Shown here in pieces: positions 4,882 through 30,853 of a stretch of DNA of 30,853 nucleotides. The stretch lies in IMG/VR virus record IMGVR_UViG_2619619129_000009, one strand, 5' to 3'. The stretch's first letter is position 1. Each line of letters opens with the position of its first letter. This stretch comes from a virus (Duplodnaviria; Heunggongvirae; Uroviricota; Caudoviricetes). A program made the position numbers and the translations under genes. The notes beneath the pieces are model-generated. The model ran no database searches and was not told the DNA's origin. It worked only from the letters and a program-made list of their open reading frames with translations.

Positions 4882-5400
4882 TCACAGGCCGATATTGCGG
4901 CGGTGTTGCTCCAGCCGGTCGACGCCGTTCACCTTCTCAATCATGTTGATGGTGTCGATTTCGACCAGCTCCTTACCGTCCATCGTCAGCCGGAAATAGG
5001 TGCAGACCACGGAGATTTTCGACTCGGTGTCTTCTCCCTGTTTACCCTCGCCGGTGTCGATTTCTTTCTGACGTCCACGCATGACCACTTCGACGGCCAC
5101 CGTTTCGCCGGTATCGTCGCGCTGGTAAGAGCCTGCAAAACGAATCGGCACGGCATCCACACCGGTTGCGGCGTAAAGCTCCCAGATAACCGAATCCGGG
5201 AAACCACCGAGCGACCACTCCATTGACAGCGCATCGTCATCAAGGCCGAGATCTACCGGTGCGCTGCCGTTCATCCCCGCACCGCGATAGTTTTCGAGCT
5301 TACGGGTCAGTTTTGGCAGCGTGACGGACTTCGCGACGCCCTGATAGCTGTAGCCGTTCAGAAAGACGTTCATTAACTTGAGTTTGCGCGGCATTGCCAT
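4882..5400 (-). CDS. FII: Tail tube protein FII, 172 aa
   Basis: 172-aa ORF after FI, matching P2 gpFII length and order. Confidence 0.85.
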   Translation of the reverse strand: MAMPRKLKLMNVFLNGYSYQGVAKSVTLPKLTRKLENYRGAGMNGSAPVDLGLDDDALSMEWSLGGFPDSVIWELYAATGVDAVPIRFAGSYQRDDTGETVAVEVVMRGRQKEIDTGEGKQGEDTESKISVVCTYFRLTMDGKELVEIDTINMIEKVNGVDRLEQHRRNIGL

Positions 5401-5412
5401 CGGTCAGGCTCC

Positions 5413-6662: not shown

Positions 6663-7262
6663 CTATTTGTCCCGGTTGGCTAAGGGATGACACAATTTAT
6701 TTTTTGTCACGGAGGCGGGGAATTTTTTATAGAGCGTGGACAGGCCAATATCAAAAATCAGTGCCACGCGTTGACGTGATTCCCCTGCAGCCAACAACCG
6801 CCCGGCCTGCTCCCACTCACTCGCGGTGAGTTTCGGACGTCTGCCATCAATACGACCTTTAGCTCTGGCCGCTTCCAGTCCGGCGCGAGTCCGCTCGACA
6901 ATGAGTTCTCGTTCCATTTCAGCCAGGGCACCCATCACATGAAAGAAAAAACGTCCCATCGGCGTGCTGGTATCAATGGCATCCGTCAGGCTGCGAAAAT
7001 TAACGCCGCGTTCGCGCAGTTCCTCAACCAGAATGACCAGATGCCGCATACTACGCCCCAGCCTGTCCAGCTTCCAGACCACCAGAGTGTCACCTGCTGA
7101 TAATGTTCTGAGCAGTTTTTTCAGTCCCGGTCGGTCGGACTTCGTGCCGCTGATTTTATCCTCAAAAATCAGTTCACATCCTGCACACTCCAGCGCATTA
7201 CGCTGCAATTCCGTGTTCTGGTCATTTGTTGACACGCGTACATAGCCAATAAGCATGAGCAT
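6663..7262 (-). CDS. Site-specific DNA invertase, serine recombinase of the Hin/Gin/Cin/Pin family
   Basis: N-terminus LIGYVRVSTNDQN...L.RLGRS is the resolvase/invertase catalytic signature with the active-site Ser in VRVSTNDQ; C-terminal HTH; lies next to an invertible tail-fibre segment. Confidence 0.85.
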   Translation of the reverse strand: MLMLIGYVRVSTNDQNTELQRNALECAGCELIFEDKISGTKSDRPGLKKLLRTLSAGDTLVVWKLDRLGRSMRHLVILVEELRERGVNFRSLTDAIDTSTPMGRFFFHVMGALAEMERELIVERTRAGLEAARAKGRIDGRRPKLTASEWEQAGRLLAAGESRQRVALIFDIGLSTLYKKFPASVTKNKLCHPLANRDK

Positions 7263-7311
7263 CCCCCTGAATAAAAACCGGAGATGATGCCAGTTGCCCG
7301 TTATCTCTGCA

Positions 7312-7337
7312 TTTTCATAAACGTTGGTTTAGGAGAA
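7312..7337. repeat. Left 26-bp inversion crossover site (hix/gix-like)
   Basis: TTTTCATAAACGTTGGTTTAGGAGAA resembles the hix/gix pattern (...AAACC..GGTTT...); matches the reverse complement of the right site at 19 of 26 positions. Confidence 0.6.
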
Positions 7338-7682
7338 GCGGCGAAAAGGGATGTGGGCACAGGAGATAATCAGATACCGGATATGGGAGCATTCGCTTCT
7401 GGTTCGGGATGGTTCAGGCTACCAGGTGGATATATTGTTCAGTTTGGCACTTTTTCAGGAAACACGACCCGCTTTATCAGTGGACACTTCCCTATACCAT
7501 TCCCTAATCAGCCGATGGTTTCAGTCAGTGTTATGTCTGATGCCGTTCAGTCAGACCCGTCGAATCCTGCCCAGCAGGTTTTGTCTGTAAATTTTGAACA
7601 TATCAGTAATTCAGCGTGGCGTGTGGCAACCAGTGATATCTCACAGCAATACAGATTCAGTTATATTTCGATAGGACGGTAG
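7338..7682 (+). CDS. Alternative tail-fibre C-terminal module (Sv'-like), silent in this orientation; expressed only after inversion fuses it to the constant part of H
   Basis: Open frame continuing from the left crossover site; shares the L-G-E codons at the crossover with H; followed by its own assembly chaperone. Confidence 0.55.
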   Translation, partial: AAKRDVGTGDNQIPDMGAFASGSGWFRLPGGYIVQFGTFSGNTTRFISGHFPIPFPNQPMVSVSVMSDAVQSDPSNPAQQVLSVNFEHISNSAWRVATSDISQQYRFSYISIGR

Positions 7683-7684
7683 AA

Positions 7685-8125
7685 ATGCAGAAATATATTT
7701 TCAGTGCCGATAAAAATGCGTTTTTCCCTGTGGAGCTTAAAATCGCTTATCAGGAATCCGGCGAATGGCCCGATGATGGAATCGAAATTGACGACACTGT
7801 TGCCGCCGAATTTATGAAGGAAGCACCAGAAGGAAAATACAGAGGTGTCATCGACGGAATGCCAGCATGGATTGATATTCCACCGCCAACTCATGAGGAA
7901 CAAATTGCCGCAGCCGAACTGGAAAAGCAGCAATTGATTAATCAGGTCAACGAATACATAAACAGTAAGCAATGGCCTGGTAAAGCGGCGATTGGTCGCC
8001 TGAAAGGTGAGGAACTGGCGCAATATAATTTGTGGCTGGATTATCTGGACGCACTGGAGCTGGTCGATACTTCCGGTGCGCCAGATATTGAATGGCCTAC
8101 GCCTCCGGCAGTTCAGGCCAGATGA
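7685..8125 (+). CDS. Tail fibre assembly protein (Tfa/U'-like), partner of the alternative fibre module
   Basis: 146-aa ORF whose C-terminus (WLDYLDALELVDTSGAPDIEWPTPP) parallels the C-terminus of the opposite-strand Tfa (VLDYIDAVTATDTSTAPDVIWPELP). Confidence 0.75.
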   Translation: MQKYIFSADKNAFFPVELKIAYQESGEWPDDGIEIDDTVAAEFMKEAPEGKYRGVIDGMPAWIDIPPPTHEEQIAAAELEKQQLINQVNEYINSKQWPGKAAIGRLKGEELAQYNLWLDYLDALELVDTSGAPDIEWPTPPAVQAR

Positions 8126-8699
8126 CGTCCGGCGCTGTGCTGGTATCTGTTGCCGTCACCGCGTCAATATAATCCAGCACAGCGTTAAGTCGGGTGTTTT
8201 CTGGCTGCGTCAGCTTCCGCCCGGCCTGTAATTTCAGTTGAATCAGACTGATGGAAGCCATTGCAGCATCAATCAGCGACTGGCGCTGTGCTTCTGCCGC
8301 TTCTACTGCGGCGCTATGCTGTGCCTCGGTATCCGTCACCCATTTCTCACCATCCCATTTATCGTATGGCGTTAATGGGGCGATAGTGGTTGTATTTTCA
8401 GGGTAATCACCCGGAACTGTGATTTCTTTGGTATCTCCCGTTTCGGTACTATAGACAACTTCACCGCGATGGTCTGGCACATATTCCCATGAATTTAAAT
8501 CTACAGAGCGACAGATTGCATAACCAGCTTTATGTGTACCTGGTGCATCCAAACAGGAACATGCCGGGATACCGACGCCGACAGCGAGATATTCAGTTGA
8601 TGTAGAAATATATTCCCGCGTTTCGCCATCATAGTTATGTACGATGATTTCCCCATCATTTAAAGCGTAACCGTCTTTTCCCAAAATAGCCTGTTCCAT
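8097..8699 (-). CDS. G: Tail fibre assembly protein G (Tfa), 200 aa
   Basis: Immediately downstream of H on the same strand; conserved Tfa C-terminal motif. Confidence 0.8.
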   Translation of the reverse strand: MEQAILGKDGYALNDGEIIVHNYDGETREYISTSTEYLAVGVGIPACSCLDAPGTHKAGYAICRSVDLNSWEYVPDHRGEVVYSTETGDTKEITVPGDYPENTTTIAPLTPYDKWDGEKWVTDTEAQHSAAVEAAEAQRQSLIDAAMASISLIQLKLQAGRKLTQPENTRLNAVLDYIDAVTATDTSTAPDVIWPELPEA

Positions 8700-9980
8700 T
8701 TATGCAGCCCTCACAATGTAGTTAAACGCAATGTTCCGAGGTCGAGTTTCCCCTGAAACTCTTGGAACCCCACCATTAAAAGCTCTACCAGAAATTTTAT
8801 TGATTAAATCACTATCACCAGTGAACTCCGCGCTTCCATCTGGAATTGCAACATTGCCTCCACCTGCACCAATAAATCGCAGTCTTATAGCTTTATGGCC
8901 GTGGTCTTGCAATGCGTCGCCTTGAACAGACAGAATAGTCCTTCCACTATCCACCCCACGCCCGTCATCCCATCCACGGATAAACTCACCGCGCAAATCT
9001 GGTAATTTTAACTCTGGGTAAGCCTTTGCCAGTTCCGGGTATTCTTCAGCAGAAAAAGCCGCACCATTGCATTTCAACCAGCCTGTTGGCGGAGTGGCTG
9101 AAGGCCACGGAACAGGCACCCCAACAGGTAATGCTGAGCCTTCTCCCAAATCAAGGTATGCGAGAAGACCGGCAACATCCTTTCCACTCAAATGAGTCAG
9201 CGTCTCATCCAGTGGCTGCTTACCTGACAGCGCATTGTTAATGGTGGTGCTGAATTTCGGGTCATTGTTAATGGCCGCGGCAATTTCTTTCAGTGTGTCC
9301 AGCGTGGCTGGCGCGCCGTTAATCAGAGCGGTAATAGCAGCCTGAACAAACTCAGTGGTCGCAATCCGCGTGGTGTTATTTCCTGCGGCAGGCGTCGGCG
9401 CTTTTGGTTCTCCGGTAAATGTCGGATTATGTTTCTGCGCATACTGGGTATGAGGGTCCTGTGCGGCAATGTGTTTGCTCATCTGGTCATCCACATACAG
9501 CCTTAATTCCAGGACTTCATCATCCACGTATTTACGGGTCGCCAGTACCACCGACGGGTCGATTTTCAGCGTGATAGCTTCGGTATTCGTGACAACCAGA
9601 ATCATGCGGATAGTCTGGGTACGACCACTGCCTTCCTGCAACTGCGGTTTGTACGTTTCCGGGCAGTTCGCCACCGCAATGAGTACGCCTTCATCATCAT
9701 AAAGCCCAATCTCACGGATCCAGAATCCGCCCTCGTTCTCAGGGATGATTTGCTCCGCAATAATCTGGCTCTGGTTGTTCGGGTCAACACTCAGAAGATT
9801 CAGCGGCGCGATGCGTTTCTGGTTAATCAGTTTTGTCTGTGCCGGGTCTGGTGTCGGCAAGACACCATTCGCATCACCAACGGCCATTTGCGTCAGATTC
9901 AGCTTACTGCCGAGCATCGTCGCGTTAGCCAGCCGTGCTGCGCCCTGATTAGTCAGAATGGCGTAGTATTTCACTGTCAT
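8700..9980 (-). CDS. H: Tail fibre protein H in its current orientation: constant N-terminal part (about residues 1-280) plus variable C-terminal module, 426 aa
   Basis: Position between I and G; the crossover site lies inside the gene at codons L278-G279-E280. Confidence 0.85.
   Translation of the reverse strand: MTVKYYAILTNQGAARLANATMLGSKLNLTQMAVGDANGVLPTPDPAQTKLINQKRIAPLNLLSVDPNNQSQIIAEQIIPENEGGFWIREIGLYDDEGVLIAVANCPETYKPQLQEGSGRTQTIRMILVVTNTEAITLKIDPSVVLATRKYVDDEVLELRLYVDDQMSKHIAAQDPHTQYAQKHNPTFTGEPKAPTPAAGNNTTRIATTEFVQAAITALINGAPATLDTLKEIAAAINNDPKFSTTINNALSGKQPLDETLTHLSGKDVAGLLAYLDLGEGSALPVGVPVPWPSATPPTGWLKCNGAAFSAEEYPELAKAYPELKLPDLRGEFIRGWDDGRGVDSGRTILSVQGDALQDHGHKAIRLRFIGAGGGNVAIPDGSAEFTGDSDLINKISGRAFNGGVPRVSGETRPRNIAFNYIVRAA
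9141..9166. repeat. Right 26-bp inversion crossover site, inside H
   Basis: TTCTCCCAAATCAAGGTATGCGAGAA; inverted relative to the left site, 19/26 identity; encodes the ...DLGE... junction in H. Confidence 0.6.
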
Positions 9981-18740: not shown

Positions 18741-18913
18741 TGTCAGGAGTCCTGAATAGTGATTAGAGGAGTCACATGTCGGCATCAGTTTCCCGACGAT
18801 GCACATCCTCCGCCATCAGTCCCGGATGGCTTATCACTGACACAACAGCACCTTAGCGAATCGCGGGGCGCGACTCAGTAGCCTTGCCGTGTATTCATCA
18901 CGGCGAGGTATTC

Positions 18914-20686
18914 ATGACCATCACCACAGACACCACTCTTTTACACGACCCGCGTCGTCAGGCGGCGCTGCTGTACTGGCAGGGGTTTTCCGTGCCGCAG
19001 ATTGCCGCCATGTTGCAGATGAAACGCCCGACGGTGCAGAGCTGGAAACAGCGCGACGGCTGGGACAGCGTTGCCCCCATCAGCCGTGTCGAAATGAGTC
19101 TGGAAGCGCGGCTGACCCAGCTCATCATCAAACCGCAGAAAACCGGCGGGGACTTCAAGGAAATTGACCTGCTGGGACGCCAGATTGAACGACTGGCACG
19201 GGTCAACCGTTACAGCCAGACCGGCAACGAGGCAGACCTTAATCCGAACGTCGCTAACCGCAACAAAGGCGAACGCCGCAAACCGAAAAAGAATTTTTTC
19301 AGTGACGAGGCCATCGAAAAGCTGGAGCAGATTTTCTTTGAGCAGTCTTTCGAATATCAGTTGCACTGGTATCGCGCCGGGCTTGAGCACCGCATCCGCG
19401 ATATCCTGAAATCCCGCCAGATTGGCGCGACGTTTTATTTTTCCCGCGAGGCGCTGCTGCGCGCCCTGAAAACCGGTCATAACCAGATTTTTCTGTCGGC
19501 CAGTAAAACGCAGGCGTATGTGTTCCGCGAATACATCATCGCCTTTGCCCGGCTGGTTGACGTTGACCTGACCGGTGACCCGATTGTCCTGGGCAATAAC
19601 GGCGCAAAACTGATTTTTCTCGGCACCAACTCCAACACCGCGCAGAGCCATAACGGCGACCTGTACGTCGACGAGATTTTCTGGATCCCGAATTTTCAGG
19701 TACTGCGTAAGGTGGCATCAGGTATGGCCTCACAGAGTCACCTGCGTTCGACCTATTTCTCCACCCCGTCCACGCTGGCGCACGACGCCTACCCGTTCTG
19801 GTCGGGTGAACTGTTCAACCGGGGACGCGCCAGCGCCGCCGAACGCGTGGAAATCGACGTCAGTCATAACGCCCTTGCCGGTGGGCTTCTCTGTGCAGAC
19901 GGCCAGTGGCGGCAGATTGTCACCATTGAGGACGCGTTGAAAGGCGGCTGCACGCTGTTCGACATTGAGCAGCTCAAACGTGAAAACAGCGCCGACGATT
20001 TTAAAAACCTGTTCATGTGTGAATTTGTTGACGACAAGGCGTCGGTGTTCCCGTTCGAGGAGCTGCAACGCTGCATGGTCGACACGCTGGAAGAATGGGA
20101 AGACTATGCGCCGTTTGCCGCGAATCCGTTCGGCTCCCGCCCGGTATGGATTGGTTACGACCCGTCACACCGTGGCGACAGCGCCGGATGCGTGGTACTG
20201 GCACCGCCGGTGGTGGCCGGTGGCAAATTCAGAATACTTGAGCGTCACCAGTGGAAAGGCATGGACTTTGCCACTCAGGCGGAATCCATCCGCAAACTCA
20301 CCGAAAAATACAACGTCGAATACATCGGTATTGATGCCACCGGCCTCGGTGTCGGCGTGTTCCAGCTCGTGCGCTCGTTCTATCCCGCCGCGCGTGATAT
20401 CCGCTACACGCCGGAAATGAAAACCGCAATGGTGCTCAAGGCAAAAGACGTTATCCGCCGTGGCTGTCTGGAATACGACGTCAGCGCCACCGACATCACC
20501 AGCTCGTTTATGGCTATCCGCAAGACCATGACCAGCAGCGGACGCAGCGCCACCTATGAGGCCAGCCGCAGCGAGGAAGCCAGCCACGCCGACCTCGCCT
20601 GGGCGACCATGCACGCCCTGTTAAATGAGCCACTCACCGCCGGTATCAGCACCCCGCTGACATCCACCATTCTGGAGTTTTACTGA
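18914..20686 (+). CDS. P: Terminase large (ATPase) subunit P, 590 aa from Met MTITTDTT
   Basis: Trimmed ORF gives the P2 gpP length; upstream of Q on the same strand. Confidence 0.85.
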   Translation: MTITTDTTLLHDPRRQAALLYWQGFSVPQIAAMLQMKRPTVQSWKQRDGWDSVAPISRVEMSLEARLTQLIIKPQKTGGDFKEIDLLGRQIERLARVNRYSQTGNEADLNPNVANRNKGERRKPKKNFFSDEAIEKLEQIFFEQSFEYQLHWYRAGLEHRIRDILKSRQIGATFYFSREALLRALKTGHNQIFLSASKTQAYVFREYIIAFARLVDVDLTGDPIVLGNNGAKLIFLGTNSNTAQSHNGDLYVDEIFWIPNFQVLRKVASGMASQSHLRSTYFSTPSTLAHDAYPFWSGELFNRGRASAAERVEIDVSHNALAGGLLCADGQWRQIVTIEDALKGGCTLFDIEQLKRENSADDFKNLFMCEFVDDKASVFPFEELQRCMVDTLEEWEDYAPFAANPFGSRPVWIGYDPSHRGDSAGCVVLAPPVVAGGKFRILERHQWKGMDFATQAESIRKLTEKYNVEYIGIDATGLGVGVFQLVRSFYPAARDIRYTPEMKTAMVLKAKDVIRRGCLEYDVSATDITSSFMAIRKTMTSSGRSATYEASRSEEASHADLAWATMHALLNEPLTAGISTPLTSTILEFY

Positions 20687-21720
20687 TGAGCAAGAAAAAA
20701 GGGAAAACACCGCAACCTGCGGCAAAAAAAATGACCGCCAGCGCCCCGAAAATGGAGGCATTCACCTTTGGTGAGCCGGTGCCGGTACTCGACCGCCGTG
20801 ACATTCTGGATTACGTCGAGTGCATCAGTAACGGCAGATGGTATGAGCCACCGGTCAGCTTTACCGGTCTGGCAAAAAGCCTGCGTGCTGCCGTGCATCA
20901 CAGCTCACCGATTTACGTCAAACGCAATATTCTGGCCTCGACATTTATCCCGCATCCGTGGCTTTCCCAGCAGGATTTCAGCCGCTTTGTGCTGGATTTT
21001 CTGGTGTTCGGTAATGCGTTTCTGGAAAAGCGTTACAGCACCACCGGTAAGGTCATCAGACTGGAAACCTCACCGGCAAAATATCCCCGCCGTGGCGTGG
21101 AAGAGGATGTTTACTGGTGGGTGCCGTCCTTCCATGAGCCGACACCTTTCGCGCCCGGCTCCGTGTTTCACCTGCTGGAGCCGGATATTAATCAGGAGCT
21201 GTACGGTCTGCCGGAATATCTCAGCGCCCTTAACTCTGCCTGGCTGAATGAATCAGCCACGCTGTTCCGCCGCAAGTATTACGAAAACGGCGCTCATGCC
21301 GGATACATCATGTACGTCACTGATGCCGTGCAGGATCGCAACGATATCGAAATGCTCCGCGAAAACATGGTTAAGTCAAAAGGCCGCAACAACTTTAAAA
21401 ACCTGTTTCTCTATGCCCCACAGGGAAAAGCCGACGGCATTAAAATTATCCCGCTCAGTGAAGTGGCGACGAAGGACGATTTTTTTAATATCAAAAAAGC
21501 CAGTGCCGCAGACCTGCTGGACGCGCACCGCATCCCCTTTCAGTTGATGGGCGGCAAGCCGGAGAACGTCGGGTCGCTGGGTGATATTGAGAAAGTGGCA
21601 AAGGTCTTTGTCCGCAATGAGCTTATCCCGTTACAGGACAGGATCCGCGAGATAAACGGCTGGCTCGGTCAGGAGGTCATCCGCTTTAAAAACTACTCAC
21701 TGGACACTGACAACGGCTGA
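20686..21720 (+). CDS. Q: Portal protein Q, 344 aa
   Basis: 344-aa ORF, matching P2 gpQ length; start overlaps the P stop; next to cos. Confidence 0.9.
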   Translation: MSKKKGKTPQPAAKKMTASAPKMEAFTFGEPVPVLDRRDILDYVECISNGRWYEPPVSFTGLAKSLRAAVHHSSPIYVKRNILASTFIPHPWLSQQDFSRFVLDFLVFGNAFLEKRYSTTGKVIRLETSPAKYPRRGVEEDVYWWVPSFHEPTPFAPGSVFHLLEPDINQELYGLPEYLSALNSAWLNESATLFRRKYYENGAHAGYIMYVTDAVQDRNDIEMLRENMVKSKGRNNFKNLFLYAPQGKADGIKIIPLSEVATKDDFFNIKKASAADLLDAHRIPFQLMGGKPENVGSLGDIEKVAKVFVRNELIPLQDRIREINGWLGQEVIRFKNYSLDTDNG

Positions 21721-21889: not shown

Positions 21890-21908
21890 GTGCTTTCCCC
21901 GCCTCGCC
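21890..21908 (-). other. cos: cos cohesive-end sequence
   Basis: Plus strand GTGCTTTCCCCGCCTCGCC is the reverse complement of GGCGAGGCGGGGAAAGCAC, which I recall as the 19-nt P2/186 cohesive end; lies beside Q as expected. Confidence 0.6.
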
Positions 21909-22093
21909 CGCCCGCTTCATGGGGCGTTTTTAATGCAGTTGCATGAACACTCCAAGAGCACACCATCGCTAGTGATAACTAACAATAAAAGCGACTTCTG
22001 ACGCATGCAAATCCATGCACATGATGGCATTTTTCATGATCTATGCGGTATGCTATCCGCTTCAATTTTTAACACTTGTTAAGGGAGCTAGAC

Positions 22094-23236
22094 ATGGACA
22101 TTATTGATTTAAAATCTCAACTAGAAAATGAAGATAATGCCAAGAAAAGAGCAGAGTTGCTTGCTCAGCTAGAGGTGATAAAGCAAAACGCTGAAGAGCA
22201 AATTCGTGCTGAGCAAAAGGATGTGGATTTTGAGACCAAAGAATTTACCGTTGAGTTATTAGTTAATAAGTATCATAGCGGATTAGAGGATGATACTAAC
22301 GAACTCTTTGTTCCTGATTATCAAAGGGATTTTGTTTGGAGTGAAAAAAGACAATCAAGATTGATAGAGTCTTTGATTTTGGGTTTTCCTATACCATATA
22401 TATTTACAGCAGATGTTCTCTCCGAAGATCCCGATTTAGATGGGCGAATTGAGATTGTTGATGGCTCACAGCGAGTTAGGACTATACACGCTTTTATCCA
22501 AAATGAATTAGTTTTACAAGATCTGAAATCTTTAGACGCCCTTAATGGTTTCAAATTCCAAGATTTACCATTATCACGTCAACGTCGTTTCATGAGAATT
22601 CCTGTCCGCGTTATAGAATTGAGTTCTAAATGCAATGAAGAAACCCGTAGAGATCTTTTTGAACGTATTAACTCTGGCAGCGATATATTGAAAGATATGG
22701 AAGTCCGTAAAGGATCAGAACTTGGTTCAACAAATTTATATACACAGGTTATTAAGCCATGCTCAACAATACCTAAATTTAAAGAATTAGCCCCTTTATC
22801 TCAGACTAAAGAAAAACGAGATGAACGGTTAGAATTTACATTAAGATTCTTTGCCTACTTAGATAAGTACAAGAACTTTGATCATTCCGTACGGGATTTT
22901 CTAAATGACTATATGTTAGAAAATCGAGATATAGACGAAACTAAACAAAACTCAATGAAACAAGAGTTTGCTAATGTTCTATCTTTTGTTGATAACTATT
23001 TCCCAGCAGGATTCAAGAAAACTATTACTGCAAAATCTACACCTCGAGTTAGATTCGAATCTCTCGCTGTTGGCGCAGCACTTGCATTACGTGAAATCCC
23101 TGACCTTGTTCCCAAGAACTTGGATTGGCTAAGCTCAGAAGAATTCAAACGATTGACCACTTCAGACGGAGCTAATAGTCGCGTGAAGGTAATTGAACGA
23201 ATTGAATATGTTCGGGATAAATTATTAGAGGATTAA
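22094..23236 (+). CDS. DUF262 (ParB-like / GmrSD N-terminal domain) protein, about 380 aa; candidate defence NTPase/nicking component
   Basis: Motifs PDYQRDFVW and IVDGSQRVRT (DGQQR-like) seen in the translation; start chosen at the ATG 8 nt after an AGGGAG Shine-Dalgarno; AT-rich relative to the phage backbone. Confidence 0.7.
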   Translation: MDIIDLKSQLENEDNAKKRAELLAQLEVIKQNAEEQIRAEQKDVDFETKEFTVELLVNKYHSGLEDDTNELFVPDYQRDFVWSEKRQSRLIESLILGFPIPYIFTADVLSEDPDLDGRIEIVDGSQRVRTIHAFIQNELVLQDLKSLDALNGFKFQDLPLSRQRRFMRIPVRVIELSSKCNEETRRDLFERINSGSDILKDMEVRKGSELGSTNLYTQVIKPCSTIPKFKELAPLSQTKEKRDERLEFTLRFFAYLDKYKNFDHSVRDFLNDYMLENRDIDETKQNSMKQEFANVLSFVDNYFPAGFKKTITAKSTPRVRFESLAVGAALALREIPDLVPKNLDWLSSEEFKRLTTSDGANSRVKVIERIEYVRDKLLED

Positions 23237-23237
23237 C

Positions 23238-23918
23238 ATGGATCGTTTTCGTGAGGATTTTGACGAAAGGTCAGGAGAGATCTTGGCCTATTTAGATCTT
23301 TTGAAATTTATTGAGTATGCCGGTGCAGAACTGATATCATCTGATGATAAAGAACATAAGTTCTCCATTACTGCTCAATCACGAAAAACTCTAAAGGGGG
23401 CAGTATATATTCTATTATATAACCTCATTGAATCAACAATGAGAGAAGCTATCTGCCTTATTCATGAGACTATTTATGATAGAAACGTAGAATTTGACAA
23501 ACTCAGGAAAAATATCAGGTCAGAAATATTAAAAAGATTAAAAAATGAATCTGTAAATATTGAAAGTTTAGTTAACCGTCTTACTAAAGGTATATCTTGC
23601 GGTATATCTTATGGCACTTTCAACAAAAAGAAAATATTCTCAGGAAATATTGATAGAGAGGAAATCAAAGAAAAATCGAAAATATATGGTTTTTCAACAT
23701 ATTCTGATTACACTCACACTAAACATGGTGAAAAATTAGCCACTGTCAAACAACATCGTAATGATTTATCTCATGGCAATGTATCATTTGCTGAGATTGG
23801 AAAAAATGTTTCATATCAGGACTTAGAGAATATTTCATTAGAAGTAATCGCCTATCTTGATGCAATCGCGAATAATATAGAGCACTATATAAATAATAAT
23901 GAATATTTAGAACAATAG
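23238..23918 (+). CDS. HEPN-like putative nuclease, 226 aa, translationally coupled to the DUF262 gene
   Basis: C-terminal HRNDLSHG contains an R-x4-H HEPN-type motif; start codon 1 nt after the upstream stop with a GAGGA RBS; family assignment is from recalled pattern, not a search. Confidence 0.5.
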   Translation: MDRFREDFDERSGEILAYLDLLKFIEYAGAELISSDDKEHKFSITAQSRKTLKGAVYILLYNLIESTMREAICLIHETIYDRNVEFDKLRKNIRSEILKRLKNESVNIESLVNRLTKGISCGISYGTFNKKKIFSGNIDREEIKEKSKIYGFSTYSDYTHTKHGEKLATVKQHRNDLSHGNVSFAEIGKNVSYQDLENISLEVIAYLDAIANNIEHYINNNEYLEQ

Positions 23919-23924
23919 TAATAA

Positions 23925-23947
23925 GGCCTGCAAAGCAGGCCATTTTA
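23925..23947. terminator. Bidirectional rho-independent terminator between the convergent HEPN and methyltransferase genes
   Basis: Perfect stem ggcctgc / gcaggcc with loop aaa, flanked by T-rich runs on both strands. Confidence 0.65.
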
Positions 23948-24973
23948 TCATTCTAAATGGTTCTTGATTGATTGCCCAATTGCTTTTCCTAGTTCCACAG
24001 GAACAGCATTACCTATCATTTTCCCAATACTTCTTATAACAAACTTGTCTTTGTCTTCTACAAAGATATAATCCATCGGAAAAGTTTGCAATAAAGCAGC
24101 CTCTCTAAGAGAAATCGCTCTATGCTGTTCTGGATGTCCAAAACGTCCATTTCCGAAACCATAACAAAGAGTTGTAATTGTTGGACTCGGCTTATCCCAA
24201 GACATGCGCCCATATACACTAGCATATCCTTTACCGCTAGATTTCATATGACAAGCAGCAATCAGCTCCTTCGGCCAGTCCTTCCATGTACCACCAGGAA
24301 CAGAGTGTATAATTCTTTTTTTATTAATCGGATTTAATTTACTGGCTCTATGTAATATATCATTTGGATCTGTTTGGCCATCTTCTAACGGAGGAAGATT
24401 TCCTATTGCATCTCTAACTGTTTTCAAAATAACATCGTCACGTTTTACTAACTCAATCGCCCCCAATTTTGAAGCCAACAATACATGACGGGAACGGTTT
24501 TGTGGGATTCCATATTCGACACAATCAACCTTCGACGCCCAAACATAATAGCCCAACTTTAACAATGAATTATAAAAATCATTATAAACTTTATGTTTAG
24601 TTACATCAGGAACGTTCTCCATTGTTACGATTTCTGGAGATACTTCGCGAATTAAACGTTCGAACTCATAAAGAAGAGGCCATTTTTTATCATCAGCCTT
24701 ATCTTTTCCTTGAGTATATTTTGAAAAAGGTTGGCAAGGTGCGCATCCTGCCAATACTTTTACAGACGCATCACCATAAAGCCTCAGCAGTTCCTCTTTT
24801 GTTACTTTAGCGATATCTTGCTCAATAAACTTAGATTTATTGTTTCTTTCATAGGGAAACCGACATTCCCCCTCAAGGTCTATGCCTGCAACGACATCAA
24901 GCCCCGCAAGCTGTAAACCATGAGTTAATCCGCCAGCACCACAAAAAAGGTCTATCACCTTTACAGTCATCAT
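23948..24973 (-). CDS. DNA (cytosine-5)-methyltransferase, 341 aa
   Basis: Motif I DLFCGAGG, motif IV GCAPCQPFS (catalytic Pro-Cys), motif VI ENV (TMENVPD) seen in the translation. Confidence 0.85.
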   Translation of the reverse strand: MMTVKVIDLFCGAGGLTHGLQLAGLDVVAGIDLEGECRFPYERNNKSKFIEQDIAKVTKEELLRLYGDASVKVLAGCAPCQPFSKYTQGKDKADDKKWPLLYEFERLIREVSPEIVTMENVPDVTKHKVYNDFYNSLLKLGYYVWASKVDCVEYGIPQNRSRHVLLASKLGAIELVKRDDVILKTVRDAIGNLPPLEDGQTDPNDILHRASKLNPINKKRIIHSVPGGTWKDWPKELIAACHMKSSGKGYASVYGRMSWDKPSPTITTLCYGFGNGRFGHPEQHRAISLREAALLQTFPMDYIFVEDKDKFVIRSIGKMIGNAVPVELGKAIGQSIKNHLE

Positions 24974-25056
24974 TCACTCCAAATCTATACGATGCTCAGT
25001 ATACATCCCTTTCTACAAAATCTCGAGGCCTAACTTATAAACTCCTATTGATTGAG

Positions 25057-27396
25057 TTAACGCTTCACTGAGTTTGACTCTAATACTGTTGAGAATCCCG
25101 GCCACTCATCAGCGACCTGATAAGTAAAATGTTTCCCGTCATAATTTACGGTCGCCCCACGCGCCAGCGCCTCAAGCTCCCATCGCTGCGGCCTGATACC
25201 GTTCTGAGCGAGGTCAACGCGGATACGGGTAATTTGCATTCGTTCCGACCGGGTCAGTCTGGCCGATGGTGCCATTTCATACTGTTTTAACGGGCTTCCG
25301 TTTCTCTGCTGACGATTTGGTGTTCTCAGCCCGTGTTTTAATGCGCCCCTGAGCGCCCTCACGACCTCCGGGTCATTCCATTCGATAACACCGTCATCAA
25401 CCAGATTAAGCACTGCTGCGGCGTGCTCAGAAGGCGTGGGAGCCGGTAACGAAGTATCACCGCTGGTGAGCTTTCCACAGTTATTGACAGGACTCCGAGG
25501 CGCGGCGATGCCGCTTTTTAAAGTCAAAGGCTCAACGACCGGAACTTTCGGCACAATGCGCCAGTCCGTCGTTCTGGTGATATGAATATGACGCGCGCCG
25601 AGATGCGGCGCGTAAATGCCGACCACTCTCTCGACCTCTTCCTCGTACTCGTTAACGTCATCCGACAGACTACGGGCGACCCTGACAGTCTGACAATCGC
25701 GCGGGACATTTGCCCCACCCTGCGCGCTGATATACAGCGCAAAATCACCACTGTCTGCGGCGGCGCGTGCAGCCTCGACGCGCTCGTCAAACTCATCAGC
25801 AATGCTGACGCCGCGAGGCAATTTGCGTAGTTCACGGTAAGCCCCCATTGTCGGCAGGCCAACCGTTTTAAATTGCGGAATGCGCCACGTTGACGCCCAT
25901 GCGGTAACAGCCGCTGCAGTGTCTTTCAGCGGCCTGCCGGTGTCGTTATCGAGCTGACCATCCAGTGCATAGCCGTCGATGTTTTTTGAAATGTATTTCG
26001 CGATATATCCCGCAGCACCGCCCCGGTTAAGGTGTTTTGCCTGAAAACGGTTTCGCGCGGCTCCTCTTTCGTCGCCATCCTCTTTGAGCGCATAGCGACG
26101 CATGATTTCGATAATCTGGTTACGCTGGCGTGGATGACAAAAAAGCATCATATGCCAGTGCGGCGTTCCGTCGTGGTGTGGCTCGACGACTCGCAAACCG
26201 TAGACCTGTAAATCATTATCCTTGAATGCCGTGCGCATCAGGCTCCAGATACGGCAGAGATAACGCTGCGCATCCTTTGGATTAAATGCCTCATCGTTCC
26301 AGCCGTGATTAAGCTGAACGGTTTTACTTTCGCCTTTTCCGACCTGACGTGTCGGGTGATACTTTGACGGCGCGGTCAGCGTGATAAACATCCCCACATC
26401 ACCCTCTGCGGCGGCGTAACGCTCAATACCGGCAATGGTGTTCATCAGCTCCATCCGGCGAATTTCAGGATTAGAAATACTGCCCATCACCTTACTGATA
26501 AGGTCGATGCGCTCGCCGGTTTCCCTGTTTTCAAGGTCACACGATTTAAGAAATTCCAGATTTGCCTGGCGGCGCGCACGCACATCACGAATGGCGTGTT
26601 TACTGGCATAAGGAGAACGGTCTTTATTGACCTCCCCGACAGCTATCAGTAACGCCTCATGCCAGCGCATACGCTGGCCTTTAAGCTGATGAGTCCACCA
26701 CTCATCGTTAAACAGGCGGGCAATGGCAGAATATGCCTGCCTCGTGGTCATCTGTCCTTTACGGTATTTTTTCCAGTAGAGCGGGGAAATATTGAAAGCA
26801 CGTGCAGCGCCAGCAACATGACCATACAGGTGAGCCTGCGCCTCATCCGTAAACAGCGATTCTTTTTCACCATGCGCATCCACCCATGCATCGCAGAGTT
26901 CCTCATACATCATGAAAAGCTGCGATGAGATACGGGCGGCAAACTTTTTCAGCTCCTTGTCATTCATTCCCGGCAGGCGCGCATAGTGGTCACGCTCTGC
27001 CAGAAACAGCAACGACGCGTCGGTGTTCATTTCATGGCGCTGATTCACACGCTCAATGCGCGGCCATAAACGACGCTGAAAAGTAGATGTGAGGAAATAA
27101 AACCCGTGCACCGGGCTTTTATTGCGCCGGATGTAGTCATAGCGTGAAGTAAACAGCGAGCGCAAAAAGTAAGGCAGGCGGTTAATCGTGGATAAAACAC
27201 CTTGCACCTGACGCATCTCGTCACGTGTAAGAGGTCTTTCGCGCCCGACAGCCTCGCGTGGCGCGTTCCATGCATAAGCACCGGTAAACGCCTTACCGGT
27301 GCCTGCGGCAAATGCTGACGGAGGGACAAAACGCCCGGAGGCTTTAACGGCCATATGAGCCAAAAGCCTCTGAACAACGCCTGCTGAGTTGCTCAA
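25057..27396 (-). CDS. A: Replication initiator A (rolling-circle HUH endonuclease); 779-aa ORF, true start possibly the internal Met at 27354
   Basis: HUH motif (PHWHMMLF) and tyrosine motif (YIAKYISKN) seen; size and position match P2 gpA. Confidence 0.85.
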   Translation of the reverse strand: MSNSAGVVQRLLAHMAVKASGRFVPPSAFAAGTGKAFTGAYAWNAPREAVGRERPLTRDEMRQVQGVLSTINRLPYFLRSLFTSRYDYIRRNKSPVHGFYFLTSTFQRRLWPRIERVNQRHEMNTDASLLFLAERDHYARLPGMNDKELKKFAARISSQLFMMYEELCDAWVDAHGEKESLFTDEAQAHLYGHVAGAARAFNISPLYWKKYRKGQMTTRQAYSAIARLFNDEWWTHQLKGQRMRWHEALLIAVGEVNKDRSPYASKHAIRDVRARRQANLEFLKSCDLENRETGERIDLISKVMGSISNPEIRRMELMNTIAGIERYAAAEGDVGMFITLTAPSKYHPTRQVGKGESKTVQLNHGWNDEAFNPKDAQRYLCRIWSLMRTAFKDNDLQVYGLRVVEPHHDGTPHWHMMLFCHPRQRNQIIEIMRRYALKEDGDERGAARNRFQAKHLNRGGAAGYIAKYISKNIDGYALDGQLDNDTGRPLKDTAAAVTAWASTWRIPQFKTVGLPTMGAYRELRKLPRGVSIADEFDERVEAARAAADSGDFALYISAQGGANVPRDCQTVRVARSLSDDVNEYEEEVERVVGIYAPHLGARHIHITRTTDWRIVPKVPVVEPLTLKSGIAAPRSPVNNCGKLTSGDTSLPAPTPSEHAAAVLNLVDDGVIEWNDPEVVRALRGALKHGLRTPNRQQRNGSPLKQYEMAPSARLTRSERMQITRIRVDLAQNGIRPQRWELEALARGATVNYDGKHFTYQVADEWPGFSTVLESNSVKR

Positions 27397-27619
27397 CCTG
27401 CGCGTTTAAATCAGCAAAAGACTTTGCGCTTCCGGTCAGAATATCGTGATGCATCAGGCCGGAAACGAGCTGGCTTAATTTCGGATAATAACCAACCACC
27501 GCCAGCCATTCCTGACCGGCGTTTTTACCGCTTTCCGCTCTCTTTTTCTCGTGGAGAATAAACTGAAAGCTGTCACTGGTAACGACATAACGTTCGCCAA
27601 TTTCAATACGAATACTCAT
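27344..27619 (-). CDS. Hypothetical early-operon protein (P2 orf83 position), 91 aa
   Basis: Small ORF directly upstream of A, overlapping the next ORF stop. Confidence 0.5.
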   Translation of the reverse strand: MSIRIEIGERYVVTSDSFQFILHEKKRAESGKNAGQEWLAVVGYYPKLSQLVSGLMHHDILTGSAKSFADLNAQVEQLSRRCSEAFGSYGR

Positions 27620-27840
27620 GCCGTTCTCCGGTAATGTTTGTTTTTTGCTTCAAAGACTGACTGGCAGGAAACACAACGCGTGGCTGACGGATAAGCCGCA
27701 CGACGGGCAGCAGGTATTGGCGCGTCACACTCTTCGCAAACCAGCGCAGAAGCACCGCAATGTTTTACCCTTGCCGCGTTAATCTGGCGCTCCAGTAATT
27801 CAGCCTGTTGTTCCTGAATAAAATCTACGTTGTCCGGCAT
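27616..27840 (-). CDS. TraR/DksA-family C4 zinc-finger protein (P2 orf82 position), 74 aa
   Basis: CEEC-x17-CVSC four-cysteine pattern typical of phage TraR/DksA-like proteins. Confidence 0.6.
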   Translation of the reverse strand: MPDNVDFIQEQQAELLERQINAARVKHCGASALVCEECDAPIPAARRAAYPSATRCVSCQSVFEAKNKHYRRTA

Positions 27841-27918
27841 TACCAGCTCCTTTTGTCGTTAAGTTTTTTAAATTCATCAGCGCAATAGCTGGCAATTTCT
27901 GTCGTTAATTTCGTCAGT

Positions 27919-28146
27919 TCATCCACGGAGGATGATTTGCTTGTGAAATACAGCGCGTTTAACAAGTAAATTGACCACATCAGACAGGAGGTTTAATTCA
28001 TTCTGATAAATCGCGATAACAGATTCAGTTATGTCGCGCTTTTCTTTATCAAGACCAAGTTGAATAAGAGACAAATCGCCATTTTCCATAACGGCGATTT
28101 TTAAGGCGTTATTCAGTAATACAACTGAACGAGAACAGGACATCAA
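27919..28146 (-). CDS. Hypothetical early-operon protein, 75 aa
   Basis: Small ORF in the early operon, overlapping the upstream ORF by 4 nt. Confidence 0.45.
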
Positions 28147-28400
28147 AGCACCTCCCCGCGAGACAATCCGATATTGTGAAATTTTTCCGACTCCTGACTG
28201 AGCAGCTCGACTATCTCCACGCGGGATAACTCCGCCTTTGTGATGTGGCGAATCATGGCGTCAAGATGAGAAGAAAAGCGCGTCGCAGCATCAGCCTGTG
28301 CTTCGGTTCTGGCCTGTTGCAGCAGTAATGCGTATTTACCGCACTGATTTTCAGAAACTGTATGCATGACTTTCTCCAGGCAAAAAGAAGCCCCGCACAA
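28143..28400 (-). CDS. Hypothetical early-operon protein, 85 aa
   Basis: Small ORF in the early operon between B and the downstream ORFs. Confidence 0.45.
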
Positions 28401-28430
28401 TTAAGTGCGTTAAAAACTCTGGTTAATTAC

Positions 28431-28931
28431 TTAATGCAGATATTGCTCTGGTTTTACCGACGTCAGAATTGTCGGTGCATACTCAAACAGGCTGAATAAT
28501 TCACGTAATGCACGGAATAAAGCATCACGCCAGTAACATGATTCTTCATTAATGCGCCAGTACGGCTGATTGAATTCTTTTTCTGTCAATCCCGCATGCA
28601 TAAATAAAGTACGACGCTGACTGACTGTTAAAAAACTAATATATGCATACTCACTTGCGCCGACCTGACGGCGTTTTGAGAATGCGCCACGCAATTCATC
28701 AATTGCACAAACCAGTCGTTCACGTTCGACGTCGTTCATTTCTTCAAAACGCATCGTTGCGTGACGCTGTTTTAACTGTGCATGAAAGCAAACCGTTAGC
28801 CGTTCGCGCTCCATCATCTGATTATAATAATCACATGTATCCTGCCAGCGAGGGACGGCAAGATGCTTGCCAATTATCCGGCGCATAGCTGCTGGCTGTT
28901 TTTCAACGAGATTGAGCGTCATCACTGTCAT
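28431..28931 (-). CDS. B: Replication protein B (helicase-loader-like), about 166 aa from internal Met
   Basis: Size and position (between cox-proximal small ORF and A) match P2 gpB; no motif check possible. Confidence 0.6.
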   Translation of the reverse strand: MTVMTLNLVEKQPAAMRRIIGKHLAVPRWQDTCDYYNQMMERERLTVCFHAQLKQRHATMRFEEMNDVERERLVCAIDELRGAFSKRRQVGASEYAYISFLTVSQRRTLFMHAGLTEKEFNQPYWRINEESCYWRDALFRALRELFSLFEYAPTILTSVKPEQYLH

Positions 28932-29125
28932 TTCCATACCCTCCGGCTTTTCAGAAAGGTCAGAGCCTTTTTTAACGGACTCTGTTTTTTGGTGCGGATA
29001 ATGATTCCCTTACGCCCCTTACCGTGGGTGATGGTGAAGTCAATCGCCCTGGGGCTTTCGTTACGCAATAACTGAGCAATACAACGCGGCTCATTCATAA
29101 TCACAACCCCATCCACAAAAGCCAT
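28928..29125 (-). CDS. Hypothetical early-operon protein (P2 orf78 position), 65 aa
   Basis: Small basic ORF between cox and B. Confidence 0.4.
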   Translation of the reverse strand: MAFVDGVVIMNEPRCIAQLLRNESPRAIDFTITHGKGRKGIIIRTKKQSPLKKALTFLKSRRVWK

Positions 29126-29388
29126 GCATCACGCTGTTCAACCGGTCGGTTATAAAACGCCTCACGTACAGCGCGATTAAACTCAGGAATGAAAACCCAT
29201 TTTTCACCGGCACGAGCCTTCGGTTTGCAAGGATCACGCAATTCAATAATTGGTAATTTATTTGCCTTCACCATTTCACTGACGGCTGTCTTTGGCTTCC
29301 CTAATAAATCAGCAAATTTATCCACATGAACCGCATCAAGCGGATACTGAATCACATAATTTTCAGCGTCCATATATGGTACCCTCAT
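29101..29388 (-). CDS. cox: Cox-like excisionase / transcriptional regulator
   Basis: First gene of the early operon, divergent from the repressor; C-terminal motif RAGEKWVFIPEFN...RDAWLLWMGL resembles my recollection of P2 Cox. Confidence 0.7.
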   Translation of the reverse strand: MRVPYMDAENYVIQYPLDAVHVDKFADLLGKPKTAVSEMVKANKLPIIELRDPCKPKARAGEKWVFIPEFNRAVREAFYNRPVEQRDAWLLWMGL

Positions 29389-29450
29389 AGGATCCAGCCC
29401 TTTCTAAACCACTCAAAACCGTTTAGATGCTGGTTTATTCTCAAATCAAT

Positions 29451-29503
29451 GGAACCTATATAGGTTCCAGTTTTGAGGGAATTTAGTCCCTATATAGGCA
29501 CCA
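29451..29503. promoter_or_regulatory. Immunity-region operator candidates: 18-bp perfect palindrome GGAACCTATATAGGTTCC (29451-29468) and a second CCTATATAGG copy (29489-29498)
   Basis: Palindrome and repeat read directly in the cox-C intergenic region where divergent Pe/Pc promoters and repressor operators are expected. Confidence 0.55.
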
Positions 29504-29509
29504 TGTCAA

Positions 29510-29803
29510 ATGAAATTAAGCGAAAAGATTAAGGCCTTGCGTGAGGCTGAAGGGCTAAGCCAATCAAAATTCTGTGAAATCATAGAGTTACCGCTAAGCA
29601 CACTTAAAAAATATGAAGGAGGAAACTTTGAACCCGGTGGCACAGCTTTGCTAAAAATCACTATGCATCCCACATTCCAAAAATATGCTCTATGGCTTAT
29701 GACAGATAAAACCGCGCCGGACGCAGGACAAATCGCACCGGCTCTCGCGCACATTGGGCCAGAGTCAACAGAGTCCAACCACTCCGCGAAAAGGATTGGC
29801 TAA
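29510..29803 (+). CDS. C: Immunity repressor C (HTH), 97 aa
   Basis: Small ORF divergent from cox and upstream of int; HTH-like segment LSQSKFCEIIELPLSTLKKYE. Confidence 0.75.
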   Translation: MKLSEKIKALREAEGLSQSKFCEIIELPLSTLKKYEGGNFEPGGTALLKITMHPTFQKYALWLMTDKTAPDAGQIAPALAHIGPESTESNHSAKRIG

Positions 29804-29842: not shown

Positions 29843-30853
29843 ATGGTGAATACAGCGCCGGAGGGCTTTCTTATGGCAATTAAGAAGCTCGATGATGGTC
29901 GCTATGAAGTGGACATTAGACCTCGCGGTCGCGACGGAAAACGCATCCGCAGGAAATTCGAAAGAAAAGCTGAAGCACTAGCATTTGAGCGATACACAAT
30001 CGCCAATGCCAGTCAGAAAGAATGGGGAGGCCAGCGAGCAGACCGCCGGACTTTGAGTGAGTTGCTGGACATCTGGTGGAAATATCACGGGCAAAACCAC
30101 GAGCATGGAACAAAAGAGTTTAATCATCTACTCAAAACCATCAGCGGCATAGGTGATATACCAGTGAGCAGGATGAGCAAAAGGGCTTTGATGGATTATC
30201 GTTCCATGCGACTACGTGATGGTATCAGTGCCGCAACGATAAACCGTGACATGTACCGATTATCCGGCATGTTCACAAAATTAATTCAATTGGATGAATT
30301 TTCCGGGCAACACCCAATTCACGGACTGCCGCCACTGGCGGAGGCCAACCCTGAAATGACGTTCCTGGAAAAAGCAGAAATCGAAAAACTATTAAATGTT
30401 TTGGCTGGTGATGACTTACTTGTCGCGCTTTTATGTCTGAGCACCGGAGGAAGATGGACGGAAGTTGCCACGCTAAAACCAGCACAGATTACAAATTGCA
30501 GGGTTACCTTCCTGAAAACCAAAAACGGTAAAAAGCGAACCGTGCCGATTTCTGAGGAACTGGAGAAAAAAGTTAAAGAGGAGGCCAGCGCCAAATTATT
30601 CAAAGTTGATTATGAGAAATTTTGCGGGATTTTACGCAGAGTGAAACCTGATATACCACCCAATCAGGCAACCCACATCCTGCGGCATACATTCGCAAGC
30701 CATTTCATGATGAATGGGGGCAATATAATCGCACTGCAACAGATTCTGGGACATGCGAGCATTCAGCAGACGATGGCCTATGCGCACCTTGCGCCTGACT
30801 ATCTGCAAAATGCCGTCGCTCTGAATCCACTAAAAGGCGGAGTGACGTTATAA
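29843..30853 (+). CDS. int: Tyrosine integrase (alternative start at 29873, MAIKKL)
   Basis: C-terminal catalytic region HILRHTFAS...GHASIQQTMAYAHL carries the R/H/Y tyrosine-recombinase residues; last gene before the window edge. Confidence 0.9.
   Translation: MVNTAPEGFLMAIKKLDDGRYEVDIRPRGRDGKRIRRKFERKAEALAFERYTIANASQKEWGGQRADRRTLSELLDIWWKYHGQNHEHGTKEFNHLLKTISGIGDIPVSRMSKRALMDYRSMRLRDGISAATINRDMYRLSGMFTKLIQLDEFSGQHPIHGLPPLAEANPEMTFLEKAEIEKLLNVLAGDDLLVALLCLSTGGRWTEVATLKPAQITNCRVTFLKTKNGKKRTVPISEELEKKVKEEASAKLFKVDYEKFCGILRRVKPDIPPNQATHILRHTFASHFMMNGGNIIALQQILGHASIQQTMAYAHLAPDYLQNAVALNPLKGGVTL

Follow-up and report, generated by a model that had tools for sequence, protein, structure and literature searches.

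The window, by which we mean the whole stretch analyzed here, is the IMG/VR virus record IMGVR_UViG_2619619129_000009, 30,853 nucleotides of DNA assigned to the Caudoviricetes, and it is a P2-like prophage. We focus on a three-gene cassette within it, composed of a DUF262/ParB-type gene (A), a gene for a stand-alone HEPN protein (B), and, convergent on B, a gene for a C5 cytosine DNA methyltransferase (M). The cassette is cargo of the tin/old defense hotspot of P2 and is very probably an anti-phage defense module of some kind, a reading that fits its location in that hotspot. Its features are the following.

22094-23236, plus strand: gene A, 380 amino acids; ATG at 22094 preceded by GGGAG, TAA at 23234-23236
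23227-23240, plus strand: A-B junction; Shine-Dalgarno sequence GAGGA within the end of A, TAA at 23234-23236, 1 nucleotide, ATG of B
23238-23918, plus strand: gene B, 226 amino acids; stand-alone HEPN protein of the MAE_28990 family
23925-23941, both strands: hairpin GGCCTGC-AAA-GCAGGCC, resembling an intrinsic terminator in both directions, with runs rich in T on each strand, between the convergent B and M
23948-24973, minus strand: gene M, 341 amino acids, or 340 with the ATG at 24970 (the second one) as start; C5 cytosine DNA methyltransferase, transcribed toward B

The cassette and its cargo slot

A sequence-only reading of this DNA had seen DUF262 hallmarks (YQRDFVW and DGSQR) in the first gene, with no fused C-terminal nuclease, and had described the second as a translationally coupled gene for a 226-amino-acid HEPN-like protein with an R-x4-H motif (HRNDLSHG); each of these observations holds. 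Protein A matches the Pfam family GmrSD_N/DUF262 (PF03235) with an E-value of 4.7e-26 (92.6 bits, gathering cutoff 33.2), with YQRDFVW at residues 76-82 and DGSQR at residues 123-127, and it carries all three of the motifs defined for DUF262 domains (QRxxxW, DGxQR, and FxxxN; PMC12065111), namely Q77, R78, and W82, the DGSQR just mentioned, and F189-N193. The motif residues are invariant in 32 homologues, with the exception of F189, retained by at least 90% of them. Homologues of gene A begin at the same Met (MDI[IL]ELK), that of the ATG at 22094, so that the TTG at 22076 is an unlikely start. The protein is laid out as a short N-terminal helical region, a ParB/DUF262 domain resembling nucleoside triphosphatases (NTPase-like), and a C-terminal all-helical domain of the "ParBDB" type of NsnA, which is consistent with NsnA being its best match among the PADLOC profiles (2e-54, residues 25-374), followed by PD-T4-2_A (5e-35). 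The best structural matches of the A model are BrxU (the top PDB match), SspE, DndI-type DUF262 proteins, and ParB-like proteins; no nuclease fold is found among the structural matches, and the Pfam search returned no DUF1524/HNH or other nuclease domain in A at E ≤ 1.

Protein B matches Pfam HEPN_MAE_28990 (PF18737) at E = 2.8e-29 (103.2 bits, cutoff 26.8, profile positions 6-211 of 211) and HEPN_RiboL-PSP at 8.5e-9. The DUF262 (PF03235) and HEPN profile searches that had been proposed as a check are hence significant for both proteins, and the Pfam E-values of A and B lie far outside the range of chance. The sequence HRNDLSHG occupies residues 173-180, with the catalytic-type motif R174-N-D-L-S-H179-G placed in an all-helical HEPN fold, and R174-N-x3-H179-G is invariant among relatives down to 30% identity, as are Y61-N-L-x-E65, F134-S-G-N137, and Y150-G-F152. 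The HEPN proteins of HEPN-MNT toxin-antitoxin pairs are the best structural matches of B, and PADLOC profiles gave no match to it at E ≤ 1. As judged from the domain searches, B is the sole recognizable nuclease of the cassette. The ATG of B at 23238 follows the stop codon of A after a single nucleotide, with GAGGA inside the end of A, and this junction reads as a translational-coupling arrangement.

Protein M matches Pfam DNA_methylase (PF00145) over its full length at 4.4e-58 and TIGR00675 dcm at 3.8e-37, and its translation shows motifs I (FCGAGG), IV (PCQ), VI (ENV), VIII (QNRSR), and X (GNAVP). Its relatives in the PDB include M.HaeIII, M.HhaI, and DNMT1, and its best PADLOC match is DrmMII (4.4e-91); neither these PDB relatives nor the DrmMII match fix a target specificity, and the names of its protein relatives are generic. 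The terminator scan called the hairpin between B and M on both strands and found 8 sites in total in the region against 2.5 expected.

The surroundings place the cassette in a well-defined slot, bordered by the following features.

18884-20686: terminase gene P, neighbor of the portal gene Q
20686-21720: portal gene Q, left of cos
21890-21908, minus strand: P2-type cos cohesive-end sequence, GGCGAGGCGGGGAAAGCAC
21950-25050: low-GC (guanine plus cytosine) cargo island of ~3.1 kb
25057-27396, minus strand: replication endonuclease gene A of the prophage (GPA), right of the island

The 19-mer at 21890-21908, which we take to be the cos end of P2, is an exact single match where 0 are expected by chance, and it forms the left border of the slot, separating the portal gene Q from the island. 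In the composition profile, the island has a GC content of 0.34-0.39, against ~0.55 for the prophage backbone. The cassette is thus situated between cos/portal and the replication gene A, the interval that holds tin and old in P2 and is described as an anti-phage hotspot by Vassallo et al. (2022) and Rousset et al. (2022), being home also to many validated defense systems (PMC9519451, PMC9122126). A scan for sigma-70 promoters from cos to 22094 found none upstream of gene A.

A megablast search against 5426 complete Escherichia coli genomes found the flanks in 2156 of them and the entire island in just 9. Among complete E. coli genomes, 4 have a second allele of the cassette, that of phage P24B2 described below, and 3 have a third. 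Public contigs encoding the exact A and B proteins number at least 1000 and come from Salmonella, Shigella sonnei, E. coli, and Klebsiella, and a search of PLSDB for plasmid carriage of the cassette gave no match.

Co-inheritance of A, B, and M

Scanning one genome per species yielded 388 relatives of B. The 85 non-redundant loci analyzed consist of 80 retained from the scan together with context and phage loci collected before it. A is immediately upstream of B in all 85 genome loci and in all 36 viral loci with B that were found in IMG/VR, and the two genes are an obligate pair; their gap is -4, -1, or +2 nucleotides in 60 of the 85.

An orthologous C5 methyltransferase gene, whose product is 50-87% identical to M of the window, is adjacent in 38 of the 85 genome loci, which belong to gamma-proteobacteria, cyanobacteria, and Acidobacteria. 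It is convergent on B in 36 of the 38 and upstream and co-directional in 2 (Pyrinomonadaceae), and 22 of the 35 convergent B-M pairs that were measured have a 4-nucleotide 3' overlap. In the viral loci the methyltransferase gene is adjacent in every case that is not cut by a contig end (34 of 34), and in about 20 of them the trio lies between a P2-type portal gene and a P2-type replication gene of divergent phages (Q 57-99% and GPA 30-99% identical). Pairwise identities of the three proteins correlate strongly with one another (Spearman's rho = 0.84-0.90), and the order of A, B, and convergent M recurs around distant B homologues in unrelated surroundings (Vibrio jasicida, the cyanobacterium Brasilonema, and metagenomic contigs). 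When the search was run from the methyltransferase side, the four sampled relatives (60-72% identity) were all found in a trio, in E. coli, Pseudomonas aeruginosa, Stenotrophomonas, and Shewanella. Since the same methyltransferase lineage flanks A-B in phages and across phyla, and since every sampled methyltransferase relative sits in a trio, M belongs to the module and the unit is three genes, with a DNA methyltransferase linked to and co-inherited with A-B as in restriction-modification (R-M) systems. The sequence-only reading had proposed a split DUF262 and HEPN defense pair and had noted the methyltransferase only as an experimental variable; the domains and the hotspot location uphold the pair as a defense candidate, but its extent has to be widened to include M.

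In the P. aeruginosa trio (L131, contig JTSM01000020), a gene for a Vsr very-short-patch repair endonuclease (5028-5438) lies between the methyltransferase and HEPN genes, as would be expected if the methyltransferase makes 5-methylcytosine in vivo, since Vsr genes usually accompany active methylases of this kind. At this locus the A-like gene call spans just 158 amino acids, and the locus is ~225 bp from the contig end.

Nine Moraxella catarrhalis phages (Mcat24-32; locus L009, 4216-7883) carry the trio, which directly follows a gene for a CI-like repressor (HTH_3 plus Peptidase_S24), and the cassette is therefore prophage cargo well beyond the P2 family.

Loci without a methyltransferase gene group into clades of their own in the dendrogram of A. 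The clade in Nostocales adjoins an aconitase-B-like (acnB-like) gene and the one in Microcoleus a clpB-like gene, both neighbors having been identified by sequence inspection, and such positions beside housekeeping genes indicate vertical chromosomal inheritance. We considered a third conserved system gene in these loci and rejected it, the recurrent neighbors being the acnB-like and clpB-like housekeeping genes themselves, i.e., synteny. The catalytic motifs are retained: DUF262 motifs I-III and the HEPN R-N-x3-H-G are invariant or nearly so in relatives, the methyltransferase-less clades included. In the Microcoleus clade A is often shortened to ~177 amino acids, which is the DUF262 half only (Microcoleus and related, L052, L059, L063, L064, L071, L076, L080, L086, and L089), with B at full length and with its motifs; this short A could be a split or decaying sensor. 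Within the cyanobacterial clade that does have the methyltransferase, A and B are intact in both Dolichospermum sp. (L017), where an 83-amino-acid methyltransferase remnant is left, and Aphanizomenon flos-aquae (L016), where there is none. Mobile MAE_28990-type pairs are thus always accompanied by the methyltransferase, and some long-resident chromosomal copies are without it.

The same slot of the P2-like phage isolate P24B2 (L008, NC_049387, 2021-3041; also L127-L129) holds a second allele of the trio, whose A, B, and M are 45%, 30%, and 71% identical to those of the window, respectively. That the methyltransferase is far better conserved than A and B in this comparison suggests module shuffling. 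The P24B2 methyltransferase gene has a single frameshift near residue 227 in the deposited genome and is annotated as a 234-amino-acid protein plus a 37-amino-acid open reading frame (ORF). A distinct short methyltransferase in this phage was considered and rejected, as it is the same C5 methyltransferase with one frameshift, of which intact 375-amino-acid copies exist in E. coli prophages.

Known relatives and a proposed mode of action

The cassette belongs to the MAE_28990 "ParB + HEPN + DNA methylase" family, a HEPN operon predicted by Anantharaman et al. in 2013 (PMC3710099), and the window has the arrangement given in Table 1 of that work, in which the HEPN gene is accompanied by genes for a ParB-fold protein and a DNA methylase. 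Rousset et al. (2022) list the exact domain trio among P2 hotspot loci. The window shares the Pfam families and the three genes with both descriptions, and the prophage slot with that of Rousset et al. as well. It had been stated in the sequence-only reading that the genes could not be assigned to a named system, which does not stand, given that they can be placed as the MAE_28990 operon, as the hotspot locus of Rousset et al., and as a relative of PD-T4-2 (Vassallo et al. 2022). The earlier occurrences are predictions and catalogue entries, reported without phenotype, target site, or mechanism, and in the file of systems tested by Rousset et al. there is no DUF262 entry and the MAE_28990 trio is absent. 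DefensePredictor validated a different, single-protein MAE_28990-type HEPN. The trio is an untested variant, already predicted (2013) and catalogued (2022), that has validated relatives and is not new in kind.

Our preferred reading, to which we give about an even chance, is that of a three-gene cassette with R-M logic, in which A senses the status of DNA and gates the HEPN ribonuclease (RNase) B. M would mark resident DNA at its target sites, and A would read DNA status with nucleoside triphosphate (NTP) binding or hydrolysis as a switch, by likeness to GmrSD/BrxU and SspE, where an NTPase-like domain of this type and a helical DNA-binding domain together sense the modification state (PMC10952713, PMC12065111). 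B would be made in fixed proportion to A through translational coupling and is probably bound to it. Upon meeting DNA without the cognate mark, or otherwise foreign DNA, A would release or activate B, which would then cut RNA, so that phage gene expression would be blocked or the infected cell arrested (abortive infection). To our knowledge, HEPN domains are RNases, and so the "split nuclease" envisaged in the sequence-only reading would probably cleave RNA rather than DNA. That mobile copies always have M agrees with methylation meaning "self".

Two validated systems are counted as precedent for defense by a DUF262/ParB plus HEPN (plus methyltransferase) combination. The first, PD-T4-2 from E. 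coli ECOR65 (Vassallo et al. 2022), consists of a DUF262 protein and an unannotated small HEPN protein, with two ORFs spanning 1540 bp and no methyltransferase; we compared it (RCO39066.1; contig QOYX01000002) via PADLOC profiles and the published HHpred table, and it was not reached among the top 120 homologues of A. Its DUF262 protein (~363 amino acids), like A of the window, lacks DUF1524 and precedes a HEPN protein, which belongs here to the RiboL-PSP/MAE_28990 clade, and both are E. coli accessory loci. The PD-T4-2_A profile (PDLC04027) matches A of the window at 5e-35, with residues 73-371 aligned to profile positions 55-355 of 363. Its B protein is far shorter, at an estimated ~150-165 amino acids versus 226, and B of the window has no PADLOC match to PD-T4-2_B; nor do five related MAE_28990 B proteins at E ≤ 0.1. 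The kinship of the two HEPN proteins is visible only at the clade level via HHpred (RiboL-PSP 97.8% and MAE_28990 96.9% for the PD-T4-2 HEPN; Vassallo 2022). PD-T4-2 also functions without a methyltransferase, whereas the cassette in the window carries a co-inherited C5 methyltransferase and in this respect falls outside that system.

A pair resembling PD-T4-2 is found in the Klebsiella Peduoviridae phage ST16-OXA48phi5.4 (L090, NC_049450; 2863-4766), where a gene for a DUF262 protein (NsnA-like, 1.5e-61) is followed by one for a 220-amino-acid HEPN_RiboL-PSP protein, without a methyltransferase gene, between tail-fiber and tail genes, in the second P2 cargo slot.

The second precedent, PD-lambda-5 (Vassallo 2022), combines a ParBc/HEPN fusion with a Dam-like methyltransferase, gives broad defense (its host had to be deleted for mrr), and is regarded by its authors as a compacted R-M plus abortive infection system. 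It is similar to the window in having a ParB-fold module, a HEPN-like region, and a DNA methyltransferase on a prophage, but ParB and HEPN are fused there in one protein of ~500 amino acids, and the domain is ParBc, not DUF262. Furthermore, its HEPN similarity is marginal (DUF4145, 35% probability), its methyltransferase is Dam-like (MethyltransfD12) as opposed to C5 in the window, and none of its profiles is among the PADLOC matches listed for A or B, so that PD-lambda-5 is an analogue and not a homologue of the cassette. In the case of Menshen (NsnABC), A of the window is of the NsnA type (ParB-DUF262 plus ParBDB, a domain description given in PMC12065111), with the NsnA profile matching at 2e-54; the island lacks the NsnB ATPase and the NsnC inPIN-nuclease effector of that system and has HEPN and methyltransferase genes instead.

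GmrSD, BrxU, and SspE share with A the DUF262 NTPase-like sensor domain, the DGxQR motif, and a following helical domain. Unlike the window, they have a DUF1524 HNH nuclease, which is here replaced in trans by the HEPN protein; no DUF1524 was found in A, B, or M at E ≤ 1, and the cassette is accordingly not a GmrSD-type type IV enzyme. In characterized DUF262 proteins, the DUF262 domain is an NTPase/sensor and cleavage is carried out by the separate DUF1524 HNH domain (PMC10952713, PMC12065111). This bears on a model that follows from Anantharaman et al. (2013), who proposed that R-M-linked HEPNs are PrrC-like RNase arms of multi-pronged defense (PMC3710099). In such a two-layer model, A would be a ParB-fold deoxyribonuclease (DNase) acting on unmethylated DNA and M would protect the host, A and M being a conventional R-M system, and B would be a latent suicide RNase that A holds inactive and that is unleashed when a phage anti-restriction protein neutralizes A. 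We regard this model as unlikely, since the cleaving domain is absent, since neither the domain searches nor the structural model reveal a nuclease in A, and since chromosomes stably maintain A-B without a methyltransferase, which one would not expect were A an unprotected DNase.

Returning to A as a sensor that gates B, several observations weigh against the version that we prefer. In the searchable literature there is no experimental study of the trio, and MAE_28990 is mentioned solely in the 2013 survey. A-B persists without a methyltransferase in the cyanobacterial clades beside acnB and clpB and in L016 and L017, where A and B are intact, and PD-T4-2 works without one; a cell with unmethylated DNA need therefore not suffer from its own A-B, and the meaning of methylation may be less simple than "self, do not fire". 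In addition, the known DUF262 sensors GmrSD, BrxU, and SspE answer to modified and not to unmodified DNA (PMC10952713), which would favor a licensing role of the methyl mark. Both the intact A-B after methyltransferase decay and the methyltransferase-free PD-T4-2 fit with such Ssp-like licensing or with an infection-specific trigger.

Under Ssp/Dnd-like licensing, host methyl marks made by M would load or activate A, A-B would then act on unmarked incoming DNA or transcripts, and loss of M would turn the system off instead of killing the cell. SspE is genetically linked to a DNA-modification system, as is A of the window, with SspABCD as the partner in place of a C5 methyltransferase, and it is stimulated by the self modification (phosphorothioate) made by its partner genes (PMC10952713); SspE and a DndI-type DUF262 protein are also among the best structural matches of A, and, in keeping with this model, the methyltransferase can decay while A-B stays intact (L016, L017, and P24B2 with its frameshifted M). 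Against it, the methyltransferase-less clades keep all catalytic motifs and look functional, and PD-T4-2 defends without a methyltransferase, so that sensing cannot in general depend on the mark of M. We consider the licensing model to be quite unlikely.

PD-T4-2 came out of a selection with T4, and it protects K-12 as well as its native strain from T2, T4, and T6 (PMC9519451). This would also be in line with a type IV-like role, in which A-B recognizes modified phage DNA (hydroxymethylcytosine or glucosyl-hydroxymethylcytosine) and M is co-resident phage cargo, for instance shielding phage DNA from host restriction. Such a role agrees with the top PDB match of A being the type IV enzyme BrxU and with the Vibrio table of Rousset et al. 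(2022), where a locus of DUF262, DUF262/DndB, and HEPN_MAE_28990 is labeled "Type-IV restriction". It is nevertheless distinctly improbable to us, because the same methyltransferase lineage is joined to A-B, with 4-nucleotide convergent overlaps, in non-phage chromosomes of several phyla, because every sampled close methyltransferase relative was found in a trio, and because a sensor dependent on cytosine modification alongside a cytosine methylase would risk self-attack.

R-M modules can behave as addiction modules. The cassette might thus be a stabilization module with B as toxin and A as antitoxin (or M as antidote), mainly serving prophage retention and having no real anti-phage role, and the HEPN toxins of HEPN-MNT toxin-antitoxin pairs are indeed the best structural matches of B. 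The slot, however, is a documented defense hotspot, PD-T4-2 as the closest tested relative protects its native strain, and the vertically inherited chromosomal A-B pairs beside housekeeping genes have no element to stabilize. We would attach very little probability to addiction as the whole explanation; addiction and defense roles are not mutually exclusive.

Taking the sensor-gated HEPN reading one step further, the cassette might be an R-M system without any DNase, in which a DUF262 NTPase would read the C5-methylation state of DNA and pass it on to a HEPN RNase, with self and non-self being written on DNA and the response executed on RNA. We put this forward tentatively, as a proposal that is rather doubtful in its full form. 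If it were true, the methyltransferase-less sisters (PD-T4-2 and the chromosomal pairs of cyanobacteria) would represent this very sensor and effector, adapted to other cues in DNA.

Were the sensor-gated model to hold, this ~3-kb cassette would be a clean system for asking what a nuclease-less DUF262 protein senses and how a separate effector is switched on, both being points left open by PD-T4-2, PD-lambda-5, Menshen, and Dazbog. The sister clades with and without the methyltransferase offer a natural comparison for the part that methylation plays in the decision. The main value of the cassette is as a compact model of methylation-linked, DUF262-controlled HEPN defense. It is common in prophages of clinical Enterobacterales and adds a predicted cytosine methylation activity to the host. 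From the matches to the PADLOC profile library, profile-based defense finders are expected to flag gene A alone, as an orphan NsnA or PD-T4-2_A, and so to overlook the cassette as a system.

Other features of the prophage

The early region of the window (27344-29803) is of the ordinary P2 type, with a Cox homologue at 29101-29388 on the minus strand (Phage_Cox, 1.2e-23), a C-type helix-turn-helix (HTH) repressor at 29510-29803 on the plus strand, and an integrase at 29843-30853 on the plus strand. At the other side of the window, a serine invertase gene is found at 6663-7262 on the minus strand (Pfam Resolvase, 3e-52, plus HTH_7). Beside it, on the plus strand, lie a C-terminal tail-fiber piece (7284-7682, Gp53-like_C) and a tail-fiber assembly protein (7685-8125, Caudo_TAP), ORFs that are inverted relative to the expressed tail-fiber gene (8700-9980) and its assembly gene (8097-8699), both on the minus strand. 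A search for inverted repeats that could be the crossover sites of an invertible segment gave weak candidate pairs only. By its gene arrangement, the region 6663-9980 looks like an invertible host-range switch of the Mu Gin/P1 Cin type in a P2-like prophage.

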